Assembly (NCBI GenBank): GCA_964390985.1
Contig: CAYMKM010000002.1
Coordinates: 1 to 40,895, forward strand
DNA from: an uncultured Clostridia bacterium
Lineage (GTDB): Bacteria > Bacillota > Limnochordia > DTU080
Length of the DNA stretch: 40,895 nucleotides
Direction of reading: 5' to 3'
The stretch's first letter is position 1. Every line of letters begins with the position of its first letter. This document shows positions 3,350 through 13,480 of the stretch, piece by piece. The position numbers and the translations under genes were made by a program. Under the pieces are notes generated by a model. The model saw only the letters and a list, made by a program, of their open reading frames with translations, did no database searches and was not told where the DNA came from.

Positions 3350-4510
3350 TTATTGTATAAGACGGGGCCGTATTGAAGCAGCAACACCAGCAGGTAGTAT
3401 TATGCGTATCACCACTTGGCGTTGAAGTGCTTGTAACCAGCCCATACCGTGAATCGCTACCTCTTGATCAATAGGCAACGCTATTTCAACCTCTTCCCAG
3501 CCTAAATCGGGCCAACGCTCGTTACATTTTTGGCATTTAATTAGCATTAGGCCATCTTCCTGCGTCATAAGAGCTTGAAATTTGCTTTCAGTTATGCGGC
3601 GGGCAGCCACTGCCGATGATATGTAAAGACGAATGCCTACGGCTGCAGATTCTGCCGAAGAACTAACCAGCGTTACCGCGGCGAATTCGCCCAAAGTGAT
3701 GCTCTGACCAGGTTTTAGGCGAATTAAGCGACTGCGTAACCGTTTAGTGGACGCTATTTTTTGGCTGCACACACTGCAAACCACATTACAAAGACTGTCT
3801 TTCACTGTTAGATCAGGTGTATCTACTAGCTTTATTTTACTTTTTGGCTCCGGGCTGTTCACCTTTGTGGTTGGATTAACCTTTTTACTACGTCGGCGGT
3901 GACTAACACTGCGTTTACTGTTCGTTGTCGGTGACGATACAGCTTGTTCTGCCGCAGTCGGAGCGTTATCTGGCGTCGTTTTTTTCTTGCGCGTTGGCCT
4001 ACGGGTTCGCCGGCGCGAAACAGCTACAGCTTGTACTTTGTCTTTTCCGTCACTCTCATCATCTATAAGCATATTAGAACTGGTACGGCGTAAGCGTCCT
4101 TTCTTCGCCGTCGTTTGTTTAGATGTATCATTTAATAATTTGAACAGGGCAGTTTTCCCCACACCCGTAGCGCCTATGAGCGCTACGGTTCCCTTCCCGT
4201 GCAACTCCTTTACAACCCATTTCCACAAGTCAGAAATACCAACACGGCTTTTGGCACTGATCACTTGCACATCGCGGACGGAAATATCAATTTGATCCAG
4301 GTATTTATGAACCCAATTTACAACCTGAGTCTCACTCACCTTGGATGGCAATAAATCAAATTTGTTGAGAACCAGCACCATTTTATGTGCATAATTAGCA
4401 ACCACTCTGCGACTGAAGGTGGAGGGAAAATCAGTAGCATCAGCCACATAAATAATCAGATCAGCCGATTCTGCTGACTCTCTGATGGCAGTTAATGTAT
4501 TTTGTTGCAT
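3350..4510 (-). CDS. yqeH: Circularly permuted YqeH-like GTPase, atypical (no N-terminal Zn finger, large basic insert)
   Basis: I chose ATG 4510 (GGAGG SD, 6-nt spacer) over ORF-track start 4573, which overlaps yqeG. Motif order is G4 'NKFD', G5 'SAK', G1 'GATGVGKT', then 'DTPD' at the G3 position. The C-terminal domain ('ITLGEFAAV', 'HGMGW', 'IRPRLIQ') is colinear with B. subtilis YqeH. It lies immediately downstream of yqeG, as in Bacillus. Confidence 0.72.
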   Translation of the reverse strand: MQQNTLTAIRESAESADLIIYVADATDFPSTFSRRVVANYAHKMVLVLNKFDLLPSKVSETQVVNWVHKYLDQIDISVRDVQVISAKSRVGISDLWKWVVKELHGKGTVALIGATGVGKTALFKLLNDTSKQTTAKKGRLRRTSSNMLIDDESDGKDKVQAVAVSRRRTRRPTRKKKTTPDNAPTAAEQAVSSPTTNSKRSVSHRRRSKKVNPTTKVNSPEPKSKIKLVDTPDLTVKDSLCNVVCSVCSQKIASTKRLRSRLIRLKPGQSITLGEFAAVTLVSSSAESAAVGIRLYISSAVAARRITESKFQALMTQEDGLMLIKCQKCNERWPDLGWEEVEIALPIDQEVAIHGMGWLQALQRQVVIRIILPAGVAASIRPRLIQ

Positions 4511-4535
4511 AAGTAACCTCCATGCATACGCCCTG

Positions 4536-5087
4536 TCATTTTTGTCGGTGGCAACTCTGTTGCCTTTGGGCAACGGCTCCCTCCAAGAGCATACCTTTTT
4601 TTTGCAGACGAGTTAGAATACGGCGCTCCAAGTGCCGAACCATACGTGTATAATGTAACTCTTTATCACTGATAGGGTTAATAAGTATGGTGTATAACCC
4701 CATGCGATTACCACCAAGAACATCAGTGAAAACTTGGTCGCCAATGACTGCTGTTTCCTCTGGTTTTACATTAAGCAGTGCCAGTGCCCGCCGAAAAGGA
4801 CGTTTAGCTGGTTTAATTGCCTTTGGTATGGCTGGCACGCCCAGCTGCTTGGCAATACCCTCTACCCGCTCTTGCAAACTGTTTGAAGCTATGCAAATGC
4901 GAAAACCAAGTTCACATGCTGCATTTACCCATGCACGCATTGCATTGGGTACTTCAATGGCATCCCAACCTAATAAGGTATTATCCAAATCGAGTATTAG
5001 TGCCGTAATACCCTTAGAATATAGTTGCTGCAAATCAATATCAAGAACCGAATTAGCCACTTGATTTGGACAGAACAATTTCAGCAA
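4536..5087 (-). CDS. yqeG: YqeG-family HAD-IIIA phosphatase
   Basis: 'ALILDLDNTLLGWD', 'IASNS' and 'IGDQVFTDVLGGNRMG' are HAD motifs I-III. The N-terminus 'LLKLFCPNQV..SVLDID' aligns with B. subtilis YqeG 'MLKKFF..'. I therefore prefer TTG 5087 (GGGGG SD 6 nt upstream) over ORF-track ATG 5147. The start is uncertain by 60 nt. Confidence 0.85.
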   Translation of the reverse strand: MLKLFCPNQVANSVLDIDLQQLYSKGITALILDLDNTLLGWDAIEVPNAMRAWVNAACELGFRICIASNSLQERVEGIAKQLGVPAIPKAIKPAKRPFRRALALLNVKPEETAVIGDQVFTDVLGGNRMGLYTILINPISDKELHYTRMVRHLERRILTRLQKKGMLLEGAVAQRQQSCHRQK

Positions 5088-5152
5088 GAAGGGCCCCCAA
5101 TAGTCAATATTACAGTAAGGCGGCGCAATTGGCCGCCTGTATCGCATGCTTT

Positions 5153-5161
5153 ATTATATCA
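5153..5161 (-). promoter_or_regulatory. Extended -10 promoter element (TGaTATAAT) upstream of yqeG
   Basis: The minus strand reads TGATATAAT, a perfect -10 with a TGn extension, in the short sigK-yqeG spacer. There is no convincing -35. Confidence 0.45.
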
Positions 5162-5177
5162 CAAACTAATTCACCTT

Positions 5178-5885
5178 CTACCCTTGTGTACCCTCCGGTA
5201 ATAACGATTCTTGCAGCTTATTTATAGCACGCTTCTCTATGCGGGAAACATACGAACGGGAAATACCTAAACAACGGGATATTTCGCGCTGTGTTTTACG
5301 TACGCCGTCTATTAAACCATAGCGCAGCTCTAATACTCTTTTTTCCCGTCGATTGAGCCGTAATAATCGATCCAACATTTTCTCTTGCTCAATTCGCAAT
5401 TCAACATGTTCGCTCACGTCAATGTCGCTGGCCAAAATATCCAGCAGTGTGATTTCATTCCCCTCTTTATCAGAACCAATGGGGTCATGCAACCGCACTT
5501 CATTCCGTGTTTTTTTGGTTGAGCGCAAATACATCAGTATTTCGTTCTCTATGCAGCGAGCAGCGTACGTTGCTAACCGTGTTTGTTTGTGCCGATTGTA
5601 CGTGTTAATCGCTTTTATTAAACCGATTGTGCCAATAGATATCAAGTCATCGATATCTTCGCCGGTGTTATCGAATTTCTTCACAATGTGAGCTACCAGA
5701 CGTAAGTTCCTCTCCACTAGTATGTTACGGGATCGTTCGTCCCCTTTCTCCATGGCCTCAAGATGCTGCGCTTCTTCTTCTGCTTTCAACGGAATGGGAA
5801 ATACACTGCTGTTGGTGACATAAGATACCAAAAAAGTTAACCCATGCAAAAGCGCTGTCAATACAGCTCCCAGCAGCGATAACAA
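5178..5885 (-). CDS. sigK: Sporulation RNA polymerase sigma-K precursor (uninterrupted)
   Basis: 235 aa, near-colinear with B. subtilis pro-sigma-K. Matching segments are the pro-sequence '[16 protein letters not shown]', '[33 protein letters not shown]', '[18 protein letters not shown]' and '[14 protein letters not shown]'. TTG start at 5885 lies 7 nt downstream of an AAGGAGG SD. Confidence 0.9.
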
Positions 5886-5971: not shown

Positions 5972-7051
5972 TTACTGCTGTTCTTTTAGATAACGACGCG
6001 CCTCTAGATGCTCTTGATACGTGGAAGAGAAGATGTGAGTGCCATCGCCGCGAGCCACAAAATATAGGTAATTTGTAGCGGCTGGGTGCAATACCGCCAG
6101 AATTGCTTCTTTTCCTGGACTAGCAATTGGTCCGGGCGGCAATCCGGGGTATTTGTAAGTGTTGAAAGGTGAATCAATGGCAATATCTTGTAAGGATAGA
6201 TAGGTTGGTGGATTCTCCATTACATACTTTACACTTGGATCTGCTTGTAGGGGCATGCCTAACCGCAGGCGTTTCAAAAATACGGCGGCAATAAGCGGTC
6301 TTTCTTCAGCCACTTGTGCCTCTTTTTCTACCAACGAAGCCAACGTGAGTAGCTTATGGAAATCAAAACCAGCAGGTAACCCCGCTTCTTCTACCAGCGG
6401 CCAAGCTACTTGCTGCATGCGTAGAAGCATCATGCGTAAAATGGTGTGCACTGGTGTACCTGGTGCAATTTTATAGGTATCGGGGAATAGGTACCCTTCC
6501 AAAGTGGGCCCTGGTAGTGGATAATCTAGTTCGAGCTCCGGAAGGCTTTTAGGATCAGTCGCCATAGCCATAAAAGACTCTTTATCAACCAAATCTGCCT
6601 GGGCTAAAGCATCAGCTATTTGTTGCAGGTTGTACCCTTCCGGGATAATAATTCCTTGATTAGCCACTGATCCGTTTTTTATATGTAAAACAATGAACGG
6701 CGGCGACCAACTAGGAGGCAAGCTATAAAAGCCCGCTTGCAGCTTACCTTCCGCGCCTAGCAGCCGAGCCCACACCACAAATTGATCAGCAGAACGAATC
6801 ACATTTTCCTGCTCTAGCTGACGGGCAATTGCTCGTGTACCCGCTCCAGAAGCTACTCGCACTGATATGGCCTGCGCTCCGGGACCTGCTGCCGGTAGGC
6901 ATAAATACAACGCAAGCAACAAAATAATCAATGCCACCCCCGCCAGAATTATATAGCGGGGATGGCGAAATAGAGTTGACCTGAGATTGGTGCTTTTAGT
7001 CCTCAGAATCGTCCTGATCTTCTTCCATATCGGCCCAAGCGGCCGCCACAC
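5972..7051 (-). CDS. mltG: Endolytic murein transglycosylase MltG (YceG-like)
   Basis: An N-terminal TM 'YIILAGVALIILLLALYL' is followed by 'EKEAQVAEERPLIAAVFLKRL', 'LQADPSVKYV' and 'DSPFNTYKYPGLPPGPIASPG'. I chose GTG 7051 (GAGGAA SD, 7-nt spacer). ATG 7072 and 7066 are also possible. Every candidate start overlaps the DUF1292 gene. Confidence 0.85.
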   Translation of the reverse strand: MWRPLGPIWKKIRTILRTKSTNLRSTLFRHPRYIILAGVALIILLLALYLCLPAAGPGAQAISVRVASGAGTRAIARQLEQENVIRSADQFVVWARLLGAEGKLQAGFYSLPPSWSPPFIVLHIKNGSVANQGIIIPEGYNLQQIADALAQADLVDKESFMAMATDPKSLPELELDYPLPGPTLEGYLFPDTYKIAPGTPVHTILRMMLLRMQQVAWPLVEEAGLPAGFDFHKLLTLASLVEKEAQVAEERPLIAAVFLKRLRLGMPLQADPSVKYVMENPPTYLSLQDIAIDSPFNTYKYPGLPPGPIASPGKEAILAVLHPAATNYLYFVARGDGTHIFSSTYQEHLEARRYLKEQQ

Positions 7052-7322
7052 TTTCAAGTTCCTCATCGTCATCTACCAAAACTAGTTGATCCTCACCATC
7101 GACGTTTTCTATGCGAAACACCAAATACTCTACTTCTTCGAAGTCTTCATCGTCCATGTCTTCATCGTAGTCTTCTTCTTCTTCATCCATGATGAAGCCT
7201 TCCTCCGGTAATAAAATAAAGTAGCTTTGATCGCCCACCACTACCAACTGCTCTACAGTGAAGTGATGCTCCTGACCCTCTTCATCCAGCAAAGTGATCA
7301 TGTCATTTTCGTGTTCCGTCAT
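6996..7322 (-). CDS. DUF1292 family acidic protein (YrzB-like)
   Basis: 'ITLLDEEGQEHHFTVEQLVVVGDQSYFILLPEE' is the DUF1292 core, followed by a strongly acidic tail. ATG 7322 follows an AGAGGTGG SD and is preferred over TTG 7343. The position between ruvX and mltG is the conserved one. Confidence 0.8.
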   Translation of the reverse strand: MTEHENDMITLLDEEGQEHHFTVEQLVVVGDQSYFILLPEEGFIMDEEEEDYDEDMDDEDFEEVEYLVFRIENVDGEDQLVLVDDDEELESVAAAWADMEEDQDDSED

Positions 7323-7797
7323 TTGTGCCACCTCTTTCGTCAAGTGGGTGTTCTCTACGTTGCATCAGTGACCGCTGCTTATCCAGATAACCCTGCAAAA
7401 TTAGGGCGGCAGCTAGCTGGTCTACTTTTTGTCGCCGTTTTTTACGGCTAATATCTGCTGATAGCAAAACAGCTTCGGCCATTGTGGTAGAATACCTTTC
7501 GTCCATATAATAAACAGGCAACCCGGAAATCTGTTGTAATTGTGTGGCAAAAGCCCGTACTTTCTCCGCCTCCGGCCCTTCGCAACCGCTAGTGCGTAAC
7601 GGTAAGCCTACTACAAAACCCCCAGCATGTTCGTTTTTGGCTGTGTGTACCAACGATTCAATATCGGCTTGCAGTGATGAACGTTGCAACACACCGCGCG
7701 CCTGAGCAGTTAAACCTAGTTCGTCACTGACGGCTATACCAATACGGCGTTCACCCACATCAAGACCGACTAACCTAACACTACTACTATCCATCAT
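7303..7797 (-). CDS. ruvX: Holliday junction resolvase-like / pre-16S rRNA nuclease RuvX (YqgF)
   Basis: 'VGLDVGERRIGIAVSD', 'GGFVVGLPL' and 'DERYSTTMAE' match RuvX. The ATG overlaps the upstream stop (ATGA). Confidence 0.9.
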   Translation of the reverse strand: MMDSSSVRLVGLDVGERRIGIAVSDELGLTAQARGVLQRSSLQADIESLVHTAKNEHAGGFVVGLPLRTSGCEGPEAEKVRAFATQLQQISGLPVYYMDERYSTTMAEAVLLSADISRKKRRQKVDQLAAALILQGYLDKQRSLMQRREHPLDERGGTNDGTRK

Positions 7798-9299
7798 TCC
7801 CGAAAAGCCTCCGCTGTGTGCACAGTATGTACCGGATCAGCTATAATTACCTTGATCCATGATTTCCATCGCGGTAGACGCTTGCTATCGCTTCCGCTTA
7901 CATCTAGGTTGACAGGTATGCCTTTTTTATGTAGCACCTCACCTGCTTCCAACGGTGTGCGACCAACAATTGTATCGAGCACCGTAGCTACATCAATGTG
8001 TGGGCCAACCGGATAGCGCAAAGCCACCTTCATATAGTCTTCCTGCACTAATACGTCTGTAATGTACTCTAACCGTGGTGCGCCAATTAATTCTGTATCG
8101 GTTGGTAGGGTGCGACGAGCGTTATCTAAAGCTGCATTAAGCACCTGTGTCAATAATATATACTCCCCTTGAGCTTCAGCGCTGGCACTCGCTATAACAG
8201 CAGCAGCCTCCGCCCCGGATGCTGGTGATACTGTCACTTTTTCATGATCAAACATTACCGAAGAAAGAATGAGGAGCGCATCATCTCCTGCCTTGGCGCT
8301 TAAACTAACTTTACAAGCATCTTGCAGGGCTTGTAAAACTTGTTTCTGCGCTAGGCTAACATCGTTAGCGGTTACCACAGCGCGCATTTGGTCTGCTCCA
8401 TTGCGCGTCGGTTCCGGATTTGTTACTCGCAAACTTGTAGGTCCTTGGGGTAAACGCAGAATACGCCCGGCGGCAACATTGCCCATGCTACCTAACGATA
8501 AAGCTTGTACAGATACTTCAGCTTGCCCAGTTTTTGTACCCACAGGAACTTGCATAAAGTATTCTATAGTAACCGGCGGTACCTGTATAGCTTTGGTTGT
8601 AGAAAAAGTGGTGCCACCATCAGTAGCTACAAGAGTACCTTTTGGCACCGATATCTCCTTTTGGGTTTCGTTAAAAAATATCACTGTTCCGATAGCCGGT
8701 GAAATACCTACTGAGCGTTGACCACTGGAACTCACTTGGCTAGTAGCTGTCACATTGGCGGCAACAGGATGACGAGTCATGGCCTGCATGGGTAATTGAA
8801 CTTCGCTTTCTACATATTGAAGATTAGGCGTAATTGTGACAATTACTCGGGAACTATAAGCAAACGCTAGTAAAATGAGAGCGCCTATGGCAATGGCAGC
8901 TGTGGCCAGGCGTTGCTGCATTAAGAGCCGGTGACGATCAGTTCGAACTCTGCTAATGGATGCCGATGACAACTTGGTAATGGGTAAGGGTTCGGTAACA
9001 TCTCCTGCCGTGGCTAAACCCTCTGGTTGCCAGACCAAATTGATATCACAGTAAACGGGAATGTCAAAATAGCTGGCTAAACGAATAACAGCAGCATCCT
9101 GAGTTACTAAAGCCAGCTCTTTTTGCCCCTCCCGAGCATAAACCAACAACAACCGCAAATTCAAATCGTTACGGAACAAAGTAGGATCTGGTGGTAGCAC
9201 CACCGCCACCCGTTTACCAGCAGCATTTTTAACCCCTGGCAATATACTGGCGATCTCTTCCCCCGGGTCTACATGGTAAAAACTGCGGTCAACTCCCAT
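7794..9299 (-). CDS. Bitopic membrane protein of unknown function. It has a cytoplasmic N-domain, one TM and a large beta-rich extracytoplasmic domain.
   Basis: ATG 9299 follows AAGGAGG with a 6-nt spacer, whereas ORF-track start 9326 has no SD. The single hydrophobic span is 'LATAAIAIGALILLAFAY'. The Thr/Val/Ser-rich segments that follow ('VIVTITPNLQYVESEV', 'AIGTVIFFNETQKEISVPKGTLVATDGGTTFST') recall proteins commonly auto-annotated baseplate J-like. That resemblance is unverified. Confidence 0.6.
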   Translation of the reverse strand: MGVDRSFYHVDPGEEIASILPGVKNAAGKRVAVVLPPDPTLFRNDLNLRLLLVYAREGQKELALVTQDAAVIRLASYFDIPVYCDINLVWQPEGLATAGDVTEPLPITKLSSASISRVRTDRHRLLMQQRLATAAIAIGALILLAFAYSSRVIVTITPNLQYVESEVQLPMQAMTRHPVAANVTATSQVSSSGQRSVGISPAIGTVIFFNETQKEISVPKGTLVATDGGTTFSTTKAIQVPPVTIEYFMQVPVGTKTGQAEVSVQALSLGSMGNVAAGRILRLPQGPTSLRVTNPEPTRNGADQMRAVVTANDVSLAQKQVLQALQDACKVSLSAKAGDDALLILSSVMFDHEKVTVSPASGAEAAAVIASASAEAQGEYILLTQVLNAALDNARRTLPTDTELIGAPRLEYITDVLVQEDYMKVALRYPVGPHIDVATVLDTIVGRTPLEAGEVLHKKGIPVNLDVSGSDSKRLPRWKSWIKVIIADPVHTVHTAEAFRE

Positions 9300-10488
9300 G
9301 CTTGCCCTCCTTTCGCACAGAAGCATAACCCGATAGTACCATACCTTGCGCGGCTAATGCTTTTAAGACCACAAAAAGCGGACCCTGTAGCAGCCCCTCA
9401 TTATCAATAGGTTGGTTAATGGTAGCAGCATCGAGTATACGCAAGTCATATCCTGGTGGCTGTAAAACTTCTGCGCCAGGCAAACAACTACCTCCACCAC
9501 ATAAAAACAGGCGTGGCAAAACAGCCTGATGCCCTTTCAAGTCGTGGAATGCTAAAGTTAAAGCGGCGGCTAACACTTGCCAAACCGTGTTAATAGCACG
9601 TTGTACAGGCGCTACAACACTTCTTTCAAGGGCACCAGCTGCATAATCGAGTTTAACCTCTTCGGCCTCAACCAAATCGCAACGGAGTTCCAGTGCTATT
9701 TGCCTGGTAAAGGTGTACCCTCCTACCCCAATTACCCGTGCCCCGGCCATCCCCTGTTGATCGGCTAATACCACATTTGAGCTACCCGCCCCAATATCAA
9801 TAATAACCGCTCCTGGCTCGTATAACTCCATTGGCAATACACGGGCCGCCAAAGCAACATGAGTGGCTGCTAAATTAGCGTCTGGCCAACCCGCACTGGC
9901 TATTGCACCACGTAGCCCATTACAATAAGCGGACGGTGCATATGAGCGTAACACCGTCACACAAAGGTGACGACCACAAAAATGTGCCGGATCGTTTACC
10001 CGGCAGCCATCTAGCGAAATGCTGGTTAGGACTTCATCTATTAATTCCAACCTAAAATAGGGTAAACCAGTTCGTTGTGTCAGCAAGGTAGCTGCTTGTT
10101 GCTGGGTGCGAGAGGCAGTGGTAGCGGCTAATTTTGCTACTTCAGCAGAAGATAACGGGCGTTCGGGATGACGGCGCGTCATCTCGACAGTTACAAGAAC
10201 GCATTGCACCAAATCACCGCAGGCGCCAGCCATGCATGGCCAACCTGCATCGGGTGATACACCCGCTTGCATAGCTGCCTGACGTATTACACCAGCCACC
10301 GCATTAATATTGCTCACAGCACCGGCAACCATGTTGCCAATCTGCTGCTCCACTTTGCCACAACCAATTATATTACCATCTTGCACAGCGGCGGCTTTCA
10401 CCCACTGCGTGCCTATATCTAAAGCTAAAAAAGGCGCGCTAGCCCCTGCCAAGCTCGCTTTATGCAAATTGGGCTTATCGCTCGCCAT
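9289..10488 (-). CDS. Actin-fold (ASKHA) ATPase, FtsA/PilM/MreB-like
   Basis: Phosphate-1 is 'FLALDIGTQWVKAA', phosphate-2 is 'AVIIDIGAGSSNVVL' and the adenosine motif is 'LFLCGGGSCLPG'. The 3' end overlaps the downstream gene start by 11 nt. Confidence 0.7.
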   Translation of the reverse strand: MASDKPNLHKASLAGASAPFLALDIGTQWVKAAAVQDGNIIGCGKVEQQIGNMVAGAVSNINAVAGVIRQAAMQAGVSPDAGWPCMAGACGDLVQCVLVTVEMTRRHPERPLSSAEVAKLAATTASRTQQQAATLLTQRTGLPYFRLELIDEVLTSISLDGCRVNDPAHFCGRHLCVTVLRSYAPSAYCNGLRGAIASAGWPDANLAATHVALAARVLPMELYEPGAVIIDIGAGSSNVVLADQQGMAGARVIGVGGYTFTRQIALELRCDLVEAEEVKLDYAAGALERSVVAPVQRAINTVWQVLAAALTLAFHDLKGHQAVLPRLFLCGGGSCLPGAEVLQPPGYDLRILDAATINQPIDNEGLLQGPLFVVLKALAAQGMVLSGYASVRKEGKHGS

Positions 10489-10508: not shown

Positions 10509-10775
10509 CTAATTACTAGTACCAAACTCAGCCAAGTAAGTGCGAACTAGCTCCTCCAGCAATTCGTTTCGTTCAATCTCCCGAATGAGTTGACGGGCTT
10601 GCTTGTGAGTTGTGATGTAGGTAGGATCGCCAGAAAGGAGATACCCAACAATTTGGCTAGCAGGATCGTACCCTTTTTCCCTTAATGCTGCGTACACTTT
10701 GCGTAATACAGTGCCAGCTTGGTTAATATCATTATCCAAGCGAAATGACATAGTATGGTCAGTCTGTGACCCCAC
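10509..10775 (-). CDS. ireB: IreB-family regulatory phosphoprotein (UPF0297 / YrzL)
   Basis: '[59 protein letters not shown]' is near-colinear with B. subtilis YrzL. GTG start follows a GGGGGTGG SD. Confidence 0.88.
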
Positions 10776-10840: not shown

Positions 10841-13480
10841 TTAACGACTATTGACAGTCTGCCTTTCCAACTGTTCCACAAATACTTGGCTAAACTTAAC
10901 CATCACTTCGTTTATACCACTGGGGTCTTTCCCACCCGCTTGTGCCATTTGTGGTTTACCACCACCACTGCCATATACGGCTCGTATAATTTTAGCAGCG
11001 TCAATACCACGGTCGACAGCTTCCGGTGAGGCCGTCACCAGCAAATGCACCTTACCATCTGCTACACCAGCTATGGCAAATGCATATGCTCCCAACTGTT
11101 CTTTTAATTTATCAGCGAGGCTAAGTAACCCCGCACGATCTAGGTCGTCAACCGCAGCGGCAAGAATTTTGATGCCATTAACCTCTTGAACCTCGGCAAG
11201 TAGGTCATCTATTTGTGTACCAGCTAGACGAGCTTTTAGCGTCTCTATTTCCCGTTCATACTGCTTTAACTGGGCTTGCAGTTTCTCTATTTGGACGAGT
11301 ATCTCTTTCGGAGTAACCTGCAGACGCATAGCCGCATCAGCTAGTGTTTCTGTTTCATTTTTAATATGATCCCAAGCACGCTGCCCGGTAAGGGCTTCAA
11401 TTCGACGTACCCCTGAAGCAATGCTACCTTCACTCACAATGCGGAAAAGACCAATCTCACCTGTGCTCTCCACATGAGTACCGCCACACAGTTCGCGACT
11501 GACATCGCCAACTGATACCATACGCACTTTGTCACCATATTTTTCGCCAAAAAGAGCCATGGCGCCAGCATTTATAGCTGCGTCATAACTTAACTCTTGG
11601 GCACTTACTGGCAAGTTCCGCCATATTATCTCATTCACACGTCGTTCAATCTCGGCAATATCAGCAGCTGAAACGGCCTCAAAATGGGTGAAATCGAAGC
11701 GAAAGCGATCGGGAGCGACCAGTGAACCAGCCTGATTTGCATGCTCACCAATCACCTCATGTAAGGCTTTGTGCAATATGTGTGTGGCCGTGTGGTTTTG
11801 TTGCGTACCTTGCCGAGCAGTTTTATCCACTAACGCTTCTACACTCTGCCCCACTTGTAAATTACCATCATATGTGCCTTTGTGTACTACTACACCCCGG
11901 TTCGCCCGAAACACCTTTTTAATATGGAAGCGGATATCGCTCCCCTTTATTTCGCCACTATCTGCTACCTGACCGCCACCCTCTGCATAAAATGGCGTCC
12001 GGCTTAGCACGATATCGGCTACTCCTTGACCATTTAGCATACCCACTTGCTCACCATGCGTTAATATAGCTAGTACCTTTGCTTCATCAACTAACCTAGA
12101 GTATCCGGTAAACTCTGTAGCAGGTAAATCGATATCTGAAATACCATCTTGCTCATCGCCCATGTAACCTTGCTCAACCCGGGCAGCACGCGCCCGTTGC
12201 CGTTGAAGCTCCATGGCGGCGGCAAAACCGGCTTTATCGACAGATAAACCGCGATCAGCAGCTATCTCCTGTGTTAGCTCCAATGGGAAACCATAAGTAT
12301 CGTATAAGCGAAAAGCGTCTTCTCCGGTTATACCAACCTTTTTATGTTCAGCCGCTTGCATCACTTTTTCTAATATAGCCATGCCCTGATCTAGTGTTTC
12401 TTGAAAACGCTGCTCCTCAGTTTGCACAACTTTATGAATGTATGCAGACTTAGAAACCAGCTCTGGGTAGCCAGGCTCTAGAAGGGTTATTATTTGATCT
12501 ACCACATCAGATAGAAAACTACCGTGTATACCCAGCAAACGTGCGTGCCTTACCGCTCGCCGCAATAAACGACGTAACACATAGCCACGCCCTTCGTTAC
12601 CGGGTAAGATACCATCGAAAATCATTAAAATGGCACCGCGCATATGATCTGCTACAACTCGCAAACTCACATCAGCACGCTGGTCTTGCCCGTATGTGAA
12701 CCCTGCCCGTTTTGCTATAAAATCTACCACCGGATAGATAGAATCGATTTCAAAAATGCTCTTTTTATTTTGCAACAGAGCCGCAATCCGTTCCAACCCC
12801 ATGCCGGTATCAATACCCGGATGCTCCAAGGGGTGTAACTGCCCTTCTTCATCTTGATGATACTGAACGAACACTAAGTTCCATATTTCCATAAATCGTT
12901 CGCAATCACAGCCTGGTTTACAGTTAGCATCGCCGCAACCGTGCTCAGGCCCTCTATCAATGTGAATCTCAGAACAAGGCCCACAAGGCCCCACACCAAT
13001 ACCCCAAAAGTTATCCTCTTTACCTAAGCGGACAATACGTTCTTTAGGAACCCCTACTTCTTCGTGCCATATGCGAAAAGCATCGTCGTCATCTAGGTAA
13101 ATGGTTATCCATAAGTGCTGTGGATCTACCTCTAGCACTTTCGTGACATATTCCCAAGCCCAGTTGATTGCTTCCTGCTTAAAGTAGTCTCCAAACGAAA
13201 AATTACCGAGCATCTCAAAGAAGGTGCCATGGCGATCTGTAATGCCCACATTTTCTATGTCGGCTGTACGTAGGCAACGCTGGCATGTAGTAATGCGCCG
13301 TGTAGGTGGTTCTTCTCTACCAAGAAAATACGGTTTAAAAGGTACCATGCCTGCAGCGGTGAGCAGCAGCGTTGGATCGTTGTGCGGCACTAATGAAGCA
13401 CTCGGCAAGCACCGATGCTCTTTATTTTGAAAAAAGTGAAGGAATGACTGGCGGAGCTGGTCCACTGTCATGTATCGCAT
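10841..13480 (-). CDS. alaS: Alanine--tRNA ligase
   Basis: 879 aa. '[39 protein letters not shown]', '[14 protein letters not shown]' and the editing-domain 'HTATHILH'/'CGGTHV' match AlaS. GGGAGG SD lies upstream of ATG 13480. Confidence 0.97.

Follow-up and report, generated by a model that had tools for sequence, protein, structure and literature searches.

The stretch of DNA analysed here, called the window in the following, comprises 40,895 nt of contig CAYMKM010000002.1 (GCA_964390985.1) and harbors two genes between ireB and ruvX which encode an actin-fold ATPase and a single-pass membrane protein. The ATPase gene (9289-10488, minus strand) codes for 399 aa of the FtsA/PilM clade. The membrane gene (7794-9299, minus strand) codes for a bitopic protein of 501 aa, which carries the automatic database name ‘baseplate J/gp47 family protein’, the name that NCBI gives to the whole family. 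Both genes are real and are translationally coupled members of the alaS-ireB-ruvX-mltG gene string. Among relatives, the constant unit of this arrangement is the membrane gene together with ruvX, not the pair of ATPase and membrane gene.

Organization of the ireB-ruvX region

Every gene of the ireB-ruvX region is encoded on the minus strand. The stop of the ATPase gene and the start of the membrane gene overlap by 11 nt, the ATG of the membrane gene at 9299 is preceded at a distance of 6 nt by a strong Shine-Dalgarno sequence (AAAGGAGGG), and its TGA shares 4 nt with the ATG of ruvX (ATGA). A preliminary description of this DNA had noted two genes in the interval from ireB to ruvX, with an 11-nt and a 4-nt overlap, and had proposed translational coupling inside an operon. 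The coordinates and junctions agree with it, and the Shine-Dalgarno sequence and both overlaps were verified. The base composition of the two-gene stretch is the same as that of its flanks.

Upstream, ireB (10509-10775, minus strand) lies 20 nt from the ATPase gene, next to alaS (10841-13480, minus strand). Downstream follow ruvX (YqgF; 7303-7797), the gene of a DUF1292 protein (6996-7343), mltG (YceG/MltG; 5972-7072) and sigK (5178-5885), all on the minus strand; with the exception of alaS, these neighbors are assigned by Pfam and NCBIfam profiles. A promoter scan of the ireB-ruvX stretch returned matches at chance level only, and a terminator scan of the same stretch returned none that was convincing. 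A GC-rich hairpin of 13 bp is located at 6933-6966 (minus strand), 30 nt 3′ of the DUF1292 stop and inside the 5′ end of mltG as annotated; the sequence that follows the hairpin is not rich in T.

An ATPase of the FtsA/PilM clade

All three ASKHA nucleotide-binding motifs that had been proposed for the first protein were located (DIGT, residues 24-27; DIGAGSS, 231-237; GGGS, 331-334). The protein passes the cut-off of the Pfam FtsA model PF14450 (41.1 vs 31.8 bits) and stays under that of the FtsA equivalog TIGR01174 (62.4 vs 175.85 bits), as well as under those of both PilM models (TIGR01175, 29.8 vs 133 bits; PilM_2, PF11104, 22.6 vs 27 bits). A profile of its orthologues matched FtsA of the Protein Data Bank (PDB) entry 7q6f at 2.8e-25 over chain residues 2-262, through subdomains 1A, 1C and 2A. 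An AlphaFold2 model (predicted local distance difference test, pLDDT, 84; predicted template modelling score 0.84) gave Foldseek template modelling (TM) scores of 0.69-0.75 with FtsA, 0.58-0.65 with PilM and at most 0.52 with MreB. The FtsA structures superposed include 7q6i, in which FtsA is bound to an FtsN peptide, and PilM:PilN complexes were superposed as well. Both the 7q6f profile alignment and the TM scores of the model point to a 1C (SHS2) subdomain in place of 1B.

Profile scores and fold matches therefore place the ATPase in the FtsA/PilM clade, 1C subdomain included. The actin-fold assignment of the preliminary description is borne out, whereas its remark that no FtsA-specific region could be recognised has to be withdrawn, as the profile alignment to FtsA spans 1C and FtsA is the best fit of the model. 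The protein is a third paralogue type of FtsA/PilM actin-fold ATPases, neither divisome FtsA nor pilus PilM. Its orthologues share the consensus motifs DIGTE, DIGGG[ST]TD and GGGS. Among the Bacillota orthologues, the window ATPase is the most deviant one at the nucleotide motifs (residues 28 and 234-238, within 9775-10422), and near its C-terminus FVVLK replaces a conserved DVTPK.

A bitopic protein with a baseplate-J-like outer domain

The second protein had been described as bitopic, with a cytoplasmic alpha/beta N-domain, one transmembrane helix and an outer part resembling baseplate J, and the AlphaFold2 model (pLDDT 89.3), Pfam and Foldseek agree on this architecture. In the model, a cytoplasmic alpha/beta domain with the motif NLRLL..YA (aa 1-100; 9000..9299, minus strand) is followed by a basic disordered linker (aa 101-121) and a single transmembrane helix (aa 122-148; together 8856..8999, minus strand). 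The remainder is an extracytoplasmic, that is periplasmic, domain with a baseplate-J barrel and alpha/beta subdomains (aa 149-501; 7797..8855, minus strand). Residues 105-121 have a pLDDT below 50, the helix spans 122-148 and the outer domain is modelled from 152 to 490. An Arg-rich stretch precedes the helix, and the topology is N-in, C-out.

The secondary structure elements of the N-domain follow each other as beta-alpha-beta-alpha-beta-alpha-beta, and its residues N47 and L50 are nearly invariant in the family alignment. No match to the N-domain was detected among Pfam families and PDB sequences. The domain is possibly STAS/SpoIIAA-like: hhalign aligned a topologically matching segment of a SpoIIAA profile without significance (probability 1.3%, E 0.041), and assignment as a STAS domain was thus unconfirmed by this method.

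Pfam Baseplate_J (PF04865) matches the outer domain with 35.6 bits against a gathering threshold of 21.1, at 8391-8699 of the window, which covers residues 201-303 of the 501 only. The top PDB matches in Foldseek are baseplate J proteins of phages and tailocins (8kea_d at 1.1e-7, phi812, phiCD508, Mu and diffocin), and a baseplate J-like protein was matched in BFVD at 8e-9; the baseplate J matches have a Foldseek probability of 1.0. Compared with baseplate wedge J (T4 gp6, Mu gp47, P2 J; 8kea, 9euf, 9gb2, 9ki1, 8v3w), the barrel and part of its flanking domains match. Unlike the phage proteins, the window protein is the product of a housekeeping chromosomal gene with a transmembrane helix and a cytoplasmic domain, and no baseplate genes are located nearby. 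Gly, Pro and Asn make up most of the invariant residues of the outer domain, besides a single Asp; no catalytic-type set of residues was found among its invariant positions in the family alignment.

Homologues were collected by exhaustive profile search, as a word-indexed search yielded only four matches to the membrane protein and no match to the ATPase. For the membrane protein, the exhaustive search returned 1873 cluster representatives at E<=1e-3, of which 288 reach E<=1e-10. Alignments of many of these run from residue ~5 to ~490, and the whole architecture is therefore conserved.

Conservation of gene order and the link between ATPase and N-domain

A narrower-alignment search had found five related loci, including metagenome-assembled genomes (MAGs) labelled Limnochordia and Syntrophothermus. 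For the gene-order survey, 53 Bacillota loci from relatives and a sample of the phylum were annotated with profiles; counts for the ATPase add the window (n=54). The genes are arranged as AI2E-alaS-ireB-[X]-[ATPase]-membrane gene-[aldo-keto reductase]-ruvX-DUF1292-mltG-sigK, where AI2E is a transporter gene and brackets mark optional genes. In 52 of the 53 loci, ruvX follows the membrane gene either directly or across the aldo-keto reductase gene. This gene is found in about 30 of the 53 loci (e.g. L047 545-1489, L007 493-1446) and is missing from the window; it encodes an aldo-keto reductase of 314-324 aa with a C-terminal 2x[4Fe-4S] ferredoxin.

Bacillus-type genomes lack both genes, and the preliminary description had regarded the pair as inserted into a conserved gene string. 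This has to be reversed: the slot is ancestral, being retained at 52 of 53 Bacillota loci and in relatives labelled Chloroflexota and Patescibacteria. The neighborhood survey which it had called for upheld the linkage of the membrane gene to ruvX and spoke against co-conservation of the ATPase. The latter adjoins the membrane gene in 11 of 54 loci (10/53 plus the window), every time with a full-length partner, and an orthologue elsewhere in the genome was absent from five genomes without an adjacent ATPase gene. The pair is therefore not obligate.

In ten loci from four families, the membrane protein begins just before the transmembrane helix, and neither the ATPase nor gene X is present in any of these ten. 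Within family f1 (G000 and G003 vs genera g2 and g3) and family f7 (g14 vs g18), the N-domain and the ATPase have been lost together. The ATPase is an optional accessory partner that depends on the membrane protein's cytoplasmic domain, as judged from few independent events. These joint losses are the sole evidence here that links the two proteins functionally.

Gene X encodes an alkaline-phosphatase-like domain fused to a polytopic domain and is adjacent in 14 loci. Its family occurs in 232 of 401 Bacillota genomes, monoderms included. The sole homologue in the window genome is located on contig C53 (L127 3661-5633) among unrelated genes (ABC exporters, pheA, glycine cleavage), and is split into two overlapping open reading frames (3661-5277 and 5073-5633) by a frameshift, decay to a pseudogene or an assembly error. 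With a family this widespread and an unlinked copy in the window genome, the case for X as a specific third component is weakened.

Distribution among Bacillota

The same 401 Bacillota genomes were searched for the membrane-protein family, Omp85, LpxC and SpoIVA. Family-type matches were obtained in 49 of them; 16 further weak matches cover the barrel only and are phage-like in appearance. Where outer-membrane genes and SpoIVA are both present, the family occurs in 49 of 79 genomes. It was found in none of the 21 Omp85-positive genomes without SpoIVA and in none of the 301 genomes without Omp85. Omp85/BamA was detected at E<=1e-10 in 48 of the 49 carriers, the remaining one being a fragmented assembly with LpxC and pieces of Omp85, and SpoIVA in all 49. 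Within the genomes searched, the family is restricted to outer-membrane-bearing spore-formers.

The window genome contains genes for BamA/Omp85 and LpxC (contigs C60:9723-10586 and C20:2286-3092) as well as for SpoIVA and SigK/SigE, and its host is therefore an outer-membrane-bearing, endospore-forming member of the Bacillota. It is close to MAGs labelled Limnochordia, one of three Firmicutes lineages known to be diderm, the others being Negativicutes and Halanaerobiales (PMC10628300).

One carrier, the Syntrophothermus-labelled MAG G266 (contig C66:985-1881), has both the membrane gene and an Omp85 match of 1.1e-44. The Syntrophothermus lineage is not usually counted as diderm, and this genome represents either an unrecognised diderm lineage or a problem of binning or labelling.

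Relatives outside Bacillota and published fitness data

Members of the membrane-protein clusters are also labelled Chloroflexota and Patescibacteria, and the same arrangement is found in distant members, namely a Chloroflexota-labelled MAG and metagenome contigs. For the Saccharibacterium Southlakia epibionticum ML1, the gene list of Wang et al. 2023 (PMC10633639) gives the order alaS (SEML1_0657), ‘PilM’ (0656), ‘baseplate J/gp47’ (0655), RuvX (0654) and MltG (0653). In this the Southlakia locus resembles the window, with an FtsA/PilM-like gene in front of the baseplate J/gp47 gene, and SEML1_0655 likewise has an N-domain of ~100 aa before its J-like part. According to the structure-based ECOD assignment in that publication, residues 6-105 are ‘SpoIIaa-like’. 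Unlike the window host, Southlakia is a Patescibacterium without outer membrane or spores, and SEML1_0655 has 556 aa. Orthology of SEML1_0655 and SEML1_0656 follows from synteny, annotation and Patescibacterial family matches, not from direct alignment.

Transposon sequencing (Tn-seq) data for this organism are given in Table S1 of PMC10633639. Across the passages listed there, SEML1_0655 received the calls NE, ES and ES with 25, 7 and 2 insertions, SEML1_0656 (‘PilM’) NE, NE and GD, RuvX (0654) NE, ES and ES, and MltG (0653), which is non-essential, NE. By these calls, the upstream SEML1_0656 tolerates insertions much better than SEML1_0655. A functional study of the Southlakia pair beyond the Tn-seq calls was not found.

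Alternative explanations

FtsA (7q6i, 7q6f, 3wqt, 1e4g) shares with the window ATPase the actin fold with 1C for 1B and is its best match in fold and profile. FtsA-FtsN, like the window pair, combines an actin-fold ATPase with a single-pass partner, and docking probably involves the cytoplasmic part of that partner. The ATPase might accordingly be a divergent FtsA of this lineage, which tethers FtsZ after loss of ftsA, the bitopic protein taking a place in the divisome like that of FtsN or FtsQ. The window genome, 93% complete, gives this view some ground, as it holds no ftsA over the TIGR01174 cut-off and the ATPase is its best match to that model, while the dcw cluster (G000 contig C1, L020 5847-7713) runs from murF-mraY-ftsW-murG-murB-murA-ftsQ straight to ftsZ without ftsA. 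However, the sister genomes G001, G002 and G005 contain neither canonical FtsA nor the window-type ATPase, whereas both coexist in Halanaerobiales, with canonical FtsA scoring 424-435 bits in Anoxybacter, Halobacteroides and Natronospora; Southlakia, in its published gene list, has ftsA-ftsZ plus the pair. Moreover, the gene never adjoins ftsZ, and no evident membrane-targeting helix was found in the ATPase. Where FtsN has a short peptide and a SPOR domain, the membrane protein of the window combines a cytoplasmic domain that is folded with an outer domain of the baseplate-J type. A divisome role of this kind is improbable, and presence and absence in the relatives led us to reject the ATPase as a replacement of a lost FtsA.

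The distribution of the family, confined to genomes with outer-membrane genes and SpoIVA (49/79, against 0/21 and 0/301), and the presence of sigK a few genes downstream would also fit a spore-formation module of outer-membrane-bearing Firmicutes, active in wall or membrane remodelling at engulfment, in cortex synthesis or at germination. The family is missing, though, from about 30 of the 79 genomes with outer-membrane genes and SpoIVA, and it extends, ruvX linkage included, to a Chloroflexota-labelled MAG and to Patescibacteria, which form no endospores. The operon is a housekeeping one in which no mother-cell or forespore promoter was identified, and the Southlakia gene matters for vegetative growth according to the Tn-seq table. 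We regard a dedicated sporulation role as rather unlikely.

The tightest and most constant linkage at the locus is that of the membrane gene to ruvX (4-nt overlap in the window; 52/53 loci), and Southlakia 0655 and ruvX receive identical Tn-seq calls in the published table (NE/ES/ES). Hence the membrane protein might work with RuvX, for instance by using its cytoplasmic domain to anchor the YqgF nuclease at the membrane or to regulate it there. Yet forms without the N-domain keep the linkage, most bacteria possess ruvX without the membrane protein, and a periplasmic domain of 350 aa would be left unexplained. The aldo-keto reductase/ferredoxin gene often stands between the two genes, so that their coupling is not required. 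Taken as the function of the module, such a partnership appears very unlikely.

PilM-PilN (2ych, 5eou, 3jc8) and the window pair have in common an FtsA-like ATPase fold and a gene order in which a cytoplasmic actin-like protein precedes an N-in bitopic one. PilM is the second-best fold of the ATPase, weak matches to PilM_2 and TIGR01175 exist (22.6 and 29.8 bits), and the Saccharibacterial gene is automatically named ‘pilus assembly protein PilM’ in its published annotation. The pair as a fragment or variant of the type IV pilus or competence PilM-PilN alignment complex, a pairing raised in the preliminary description, is nevertheless largely refuted: both PilM models are far under their cut-offs, a complete canonical pilC-pilM-pilN-pilO set is located on contig C38 of the window genome, and pilus genes are absent from the vicinity of all 53 loci. 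The partner is also unrelated to PilN, which it exceeds fivefold in size and from which it differs in a folded N-domain of 100 aa and a J-fold outer domain.

Finally, a recent prophage or tailocin remnant with its baseplate J gene left behind, as the Pfam Baseplate_J match and the Foldseek matches to phage and diffocin baseplates might suggest, is refuted by a PF04865 match that is the sole one in the window genome, the absence of tail, sheath or other baseplate (W, V, I, tube) genes from the window locus and 53 related loci, a slot fixed across many families and phyla, a transmembrane helix and cytoplasmic domain which phage J proteins lack, and a base composition equal to that of the flanks. 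An ancient domestication of a baseplate domain is possible and compatible with the explanation we prefer.

Proposed function

That the module is real and its family assignment correct is very likely. Taken as a whole, the best explanation is an old envelope module, consisting of a bitopic core and an accessory ATPase, which acts on the cell wall; we consider it plausible, if still short of probable. An envelope function had been suggested from the neighboring mltG and ireB, and it remains the most reasonable reading.

The mechanism can be outlined tentatively, by analogy. The outer domain, which lacks conserved catalytic-type residues, would serve in the periplasm as a scaffold to which peptidoglycan or other proteins of the envelope bind. 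The actin-like ATPase would dock on the cytoplasmic domain of the membrane protein or on its juxtamembrane linker, and by ATP-dependent oligomerisation it would gather the membrane protein into clusters or bring it into position, as in FtsA-FtsN, PilM-PilN and MreB-RodZ. The process served would be growth or remodelling of the cell wall, alongside MltG and the IreB pathway. MreB-RodZ resembles the window pair in that an actin-like protein is joined to a bitopic adaptor whose cytoplasmic domain is folded, in a context of cell-wall genes (mltG in the window). In contrast to that system, the fold match of the ATPase to MreB is much weaker (TM score <=0.52), and the helix-turn-helix domains of RodZ are unrelated. 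The window genome has two mreB genes with mreCD elsewhere.

Several observations weigh against the envelope module as outlined. The link to MltG and peptidoglycan consists of gene neighborhood only. The outer domain reaches global TM scores of only 0.17-0.25 with baseplate J, good superposition being limited to a barrel of ~110 residues (root-mean-square deviation 3.7). In most carriers among the Bacillota the N-domain is present but the ATPase is not, and this domain must therefore have another role. The window ATPase departs from the consensus by E28Q, G234A, T237S and D238N (reading DIGTQ and DIGAGSSN) and, judged from these residues, may be weak or inactive. In the Chloroflexota-labelled MAG, an ATPase orthologue (L025 3743-5026) has none of the three ATP-binding motifs, which are replaced by ALYLTAE, LIALGAAGHQ and QGWGW, and retains its coupling to the membrane gene nonetheless. 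In view of the departures in the window and the loss in this relative, ATP turnover may be dispensable. An amphipathic C-terminal membrane-targeting helix is not evident in the ATPase, and no clear one is conserved among its orthologues, the maximum hydrophobic moment of the tail being 0.36 in the window ATPase and 0.3-0.56 in the orthologues. The depletion of insertions in SEML1_0655, as tabulated, could in part be a polar effect on ruvX, although the upstream SEML1_0656 tolerates them much better. Likewise, the outer-membrane association could reflect common descent of a few clades, as it is inflated by relatedness: the 21 positive families probably fall into no more than a handful of clades.

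Bacteria divide, elongate and assemble pili by means of actin-like ATPases to which single-pass membrane adaptors are coupled. The literature searched describes no additional conserved system of this type, and nothing relevant was found there on baseplate J in connection with FtsA, ruvX or diderm Firmicutes; the earlier statement that no function is described for such a pair holds for this literature. In a bolder form, which we consider doubtful, the pair would join FtsA, MreB and PilM as a fourth, as yet unnamed actin-like membrane system of bacteria, built around a domesticated phage-baseplate domain exposed to the periplasm. Such a system would be ancestral in Terrabacteria, and Firmicutes would have retained it only in lineages that combine an outer membrane with sporulation, because it organises the wall or periplasm under the second membrane.

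Cultured carriers are available with Halobacteroides halobius (Halha_2064/2065), Anoxybacter fermentans and Natronospora cellulosivora, and further carriers are genomes with only the membrane gene and a membrane protein of the gene-X type. With its linkage to mltG and ireB and its contribution to fitness in a Saccharibacterium, the module would therefore add a component to the bacterial cell envelope. Its restriction to outer-membrane-bearing spore-formers among the 401 Firmicutes genomes offers a handle on how diderm Firmicutes build their envelope and how it was lost.

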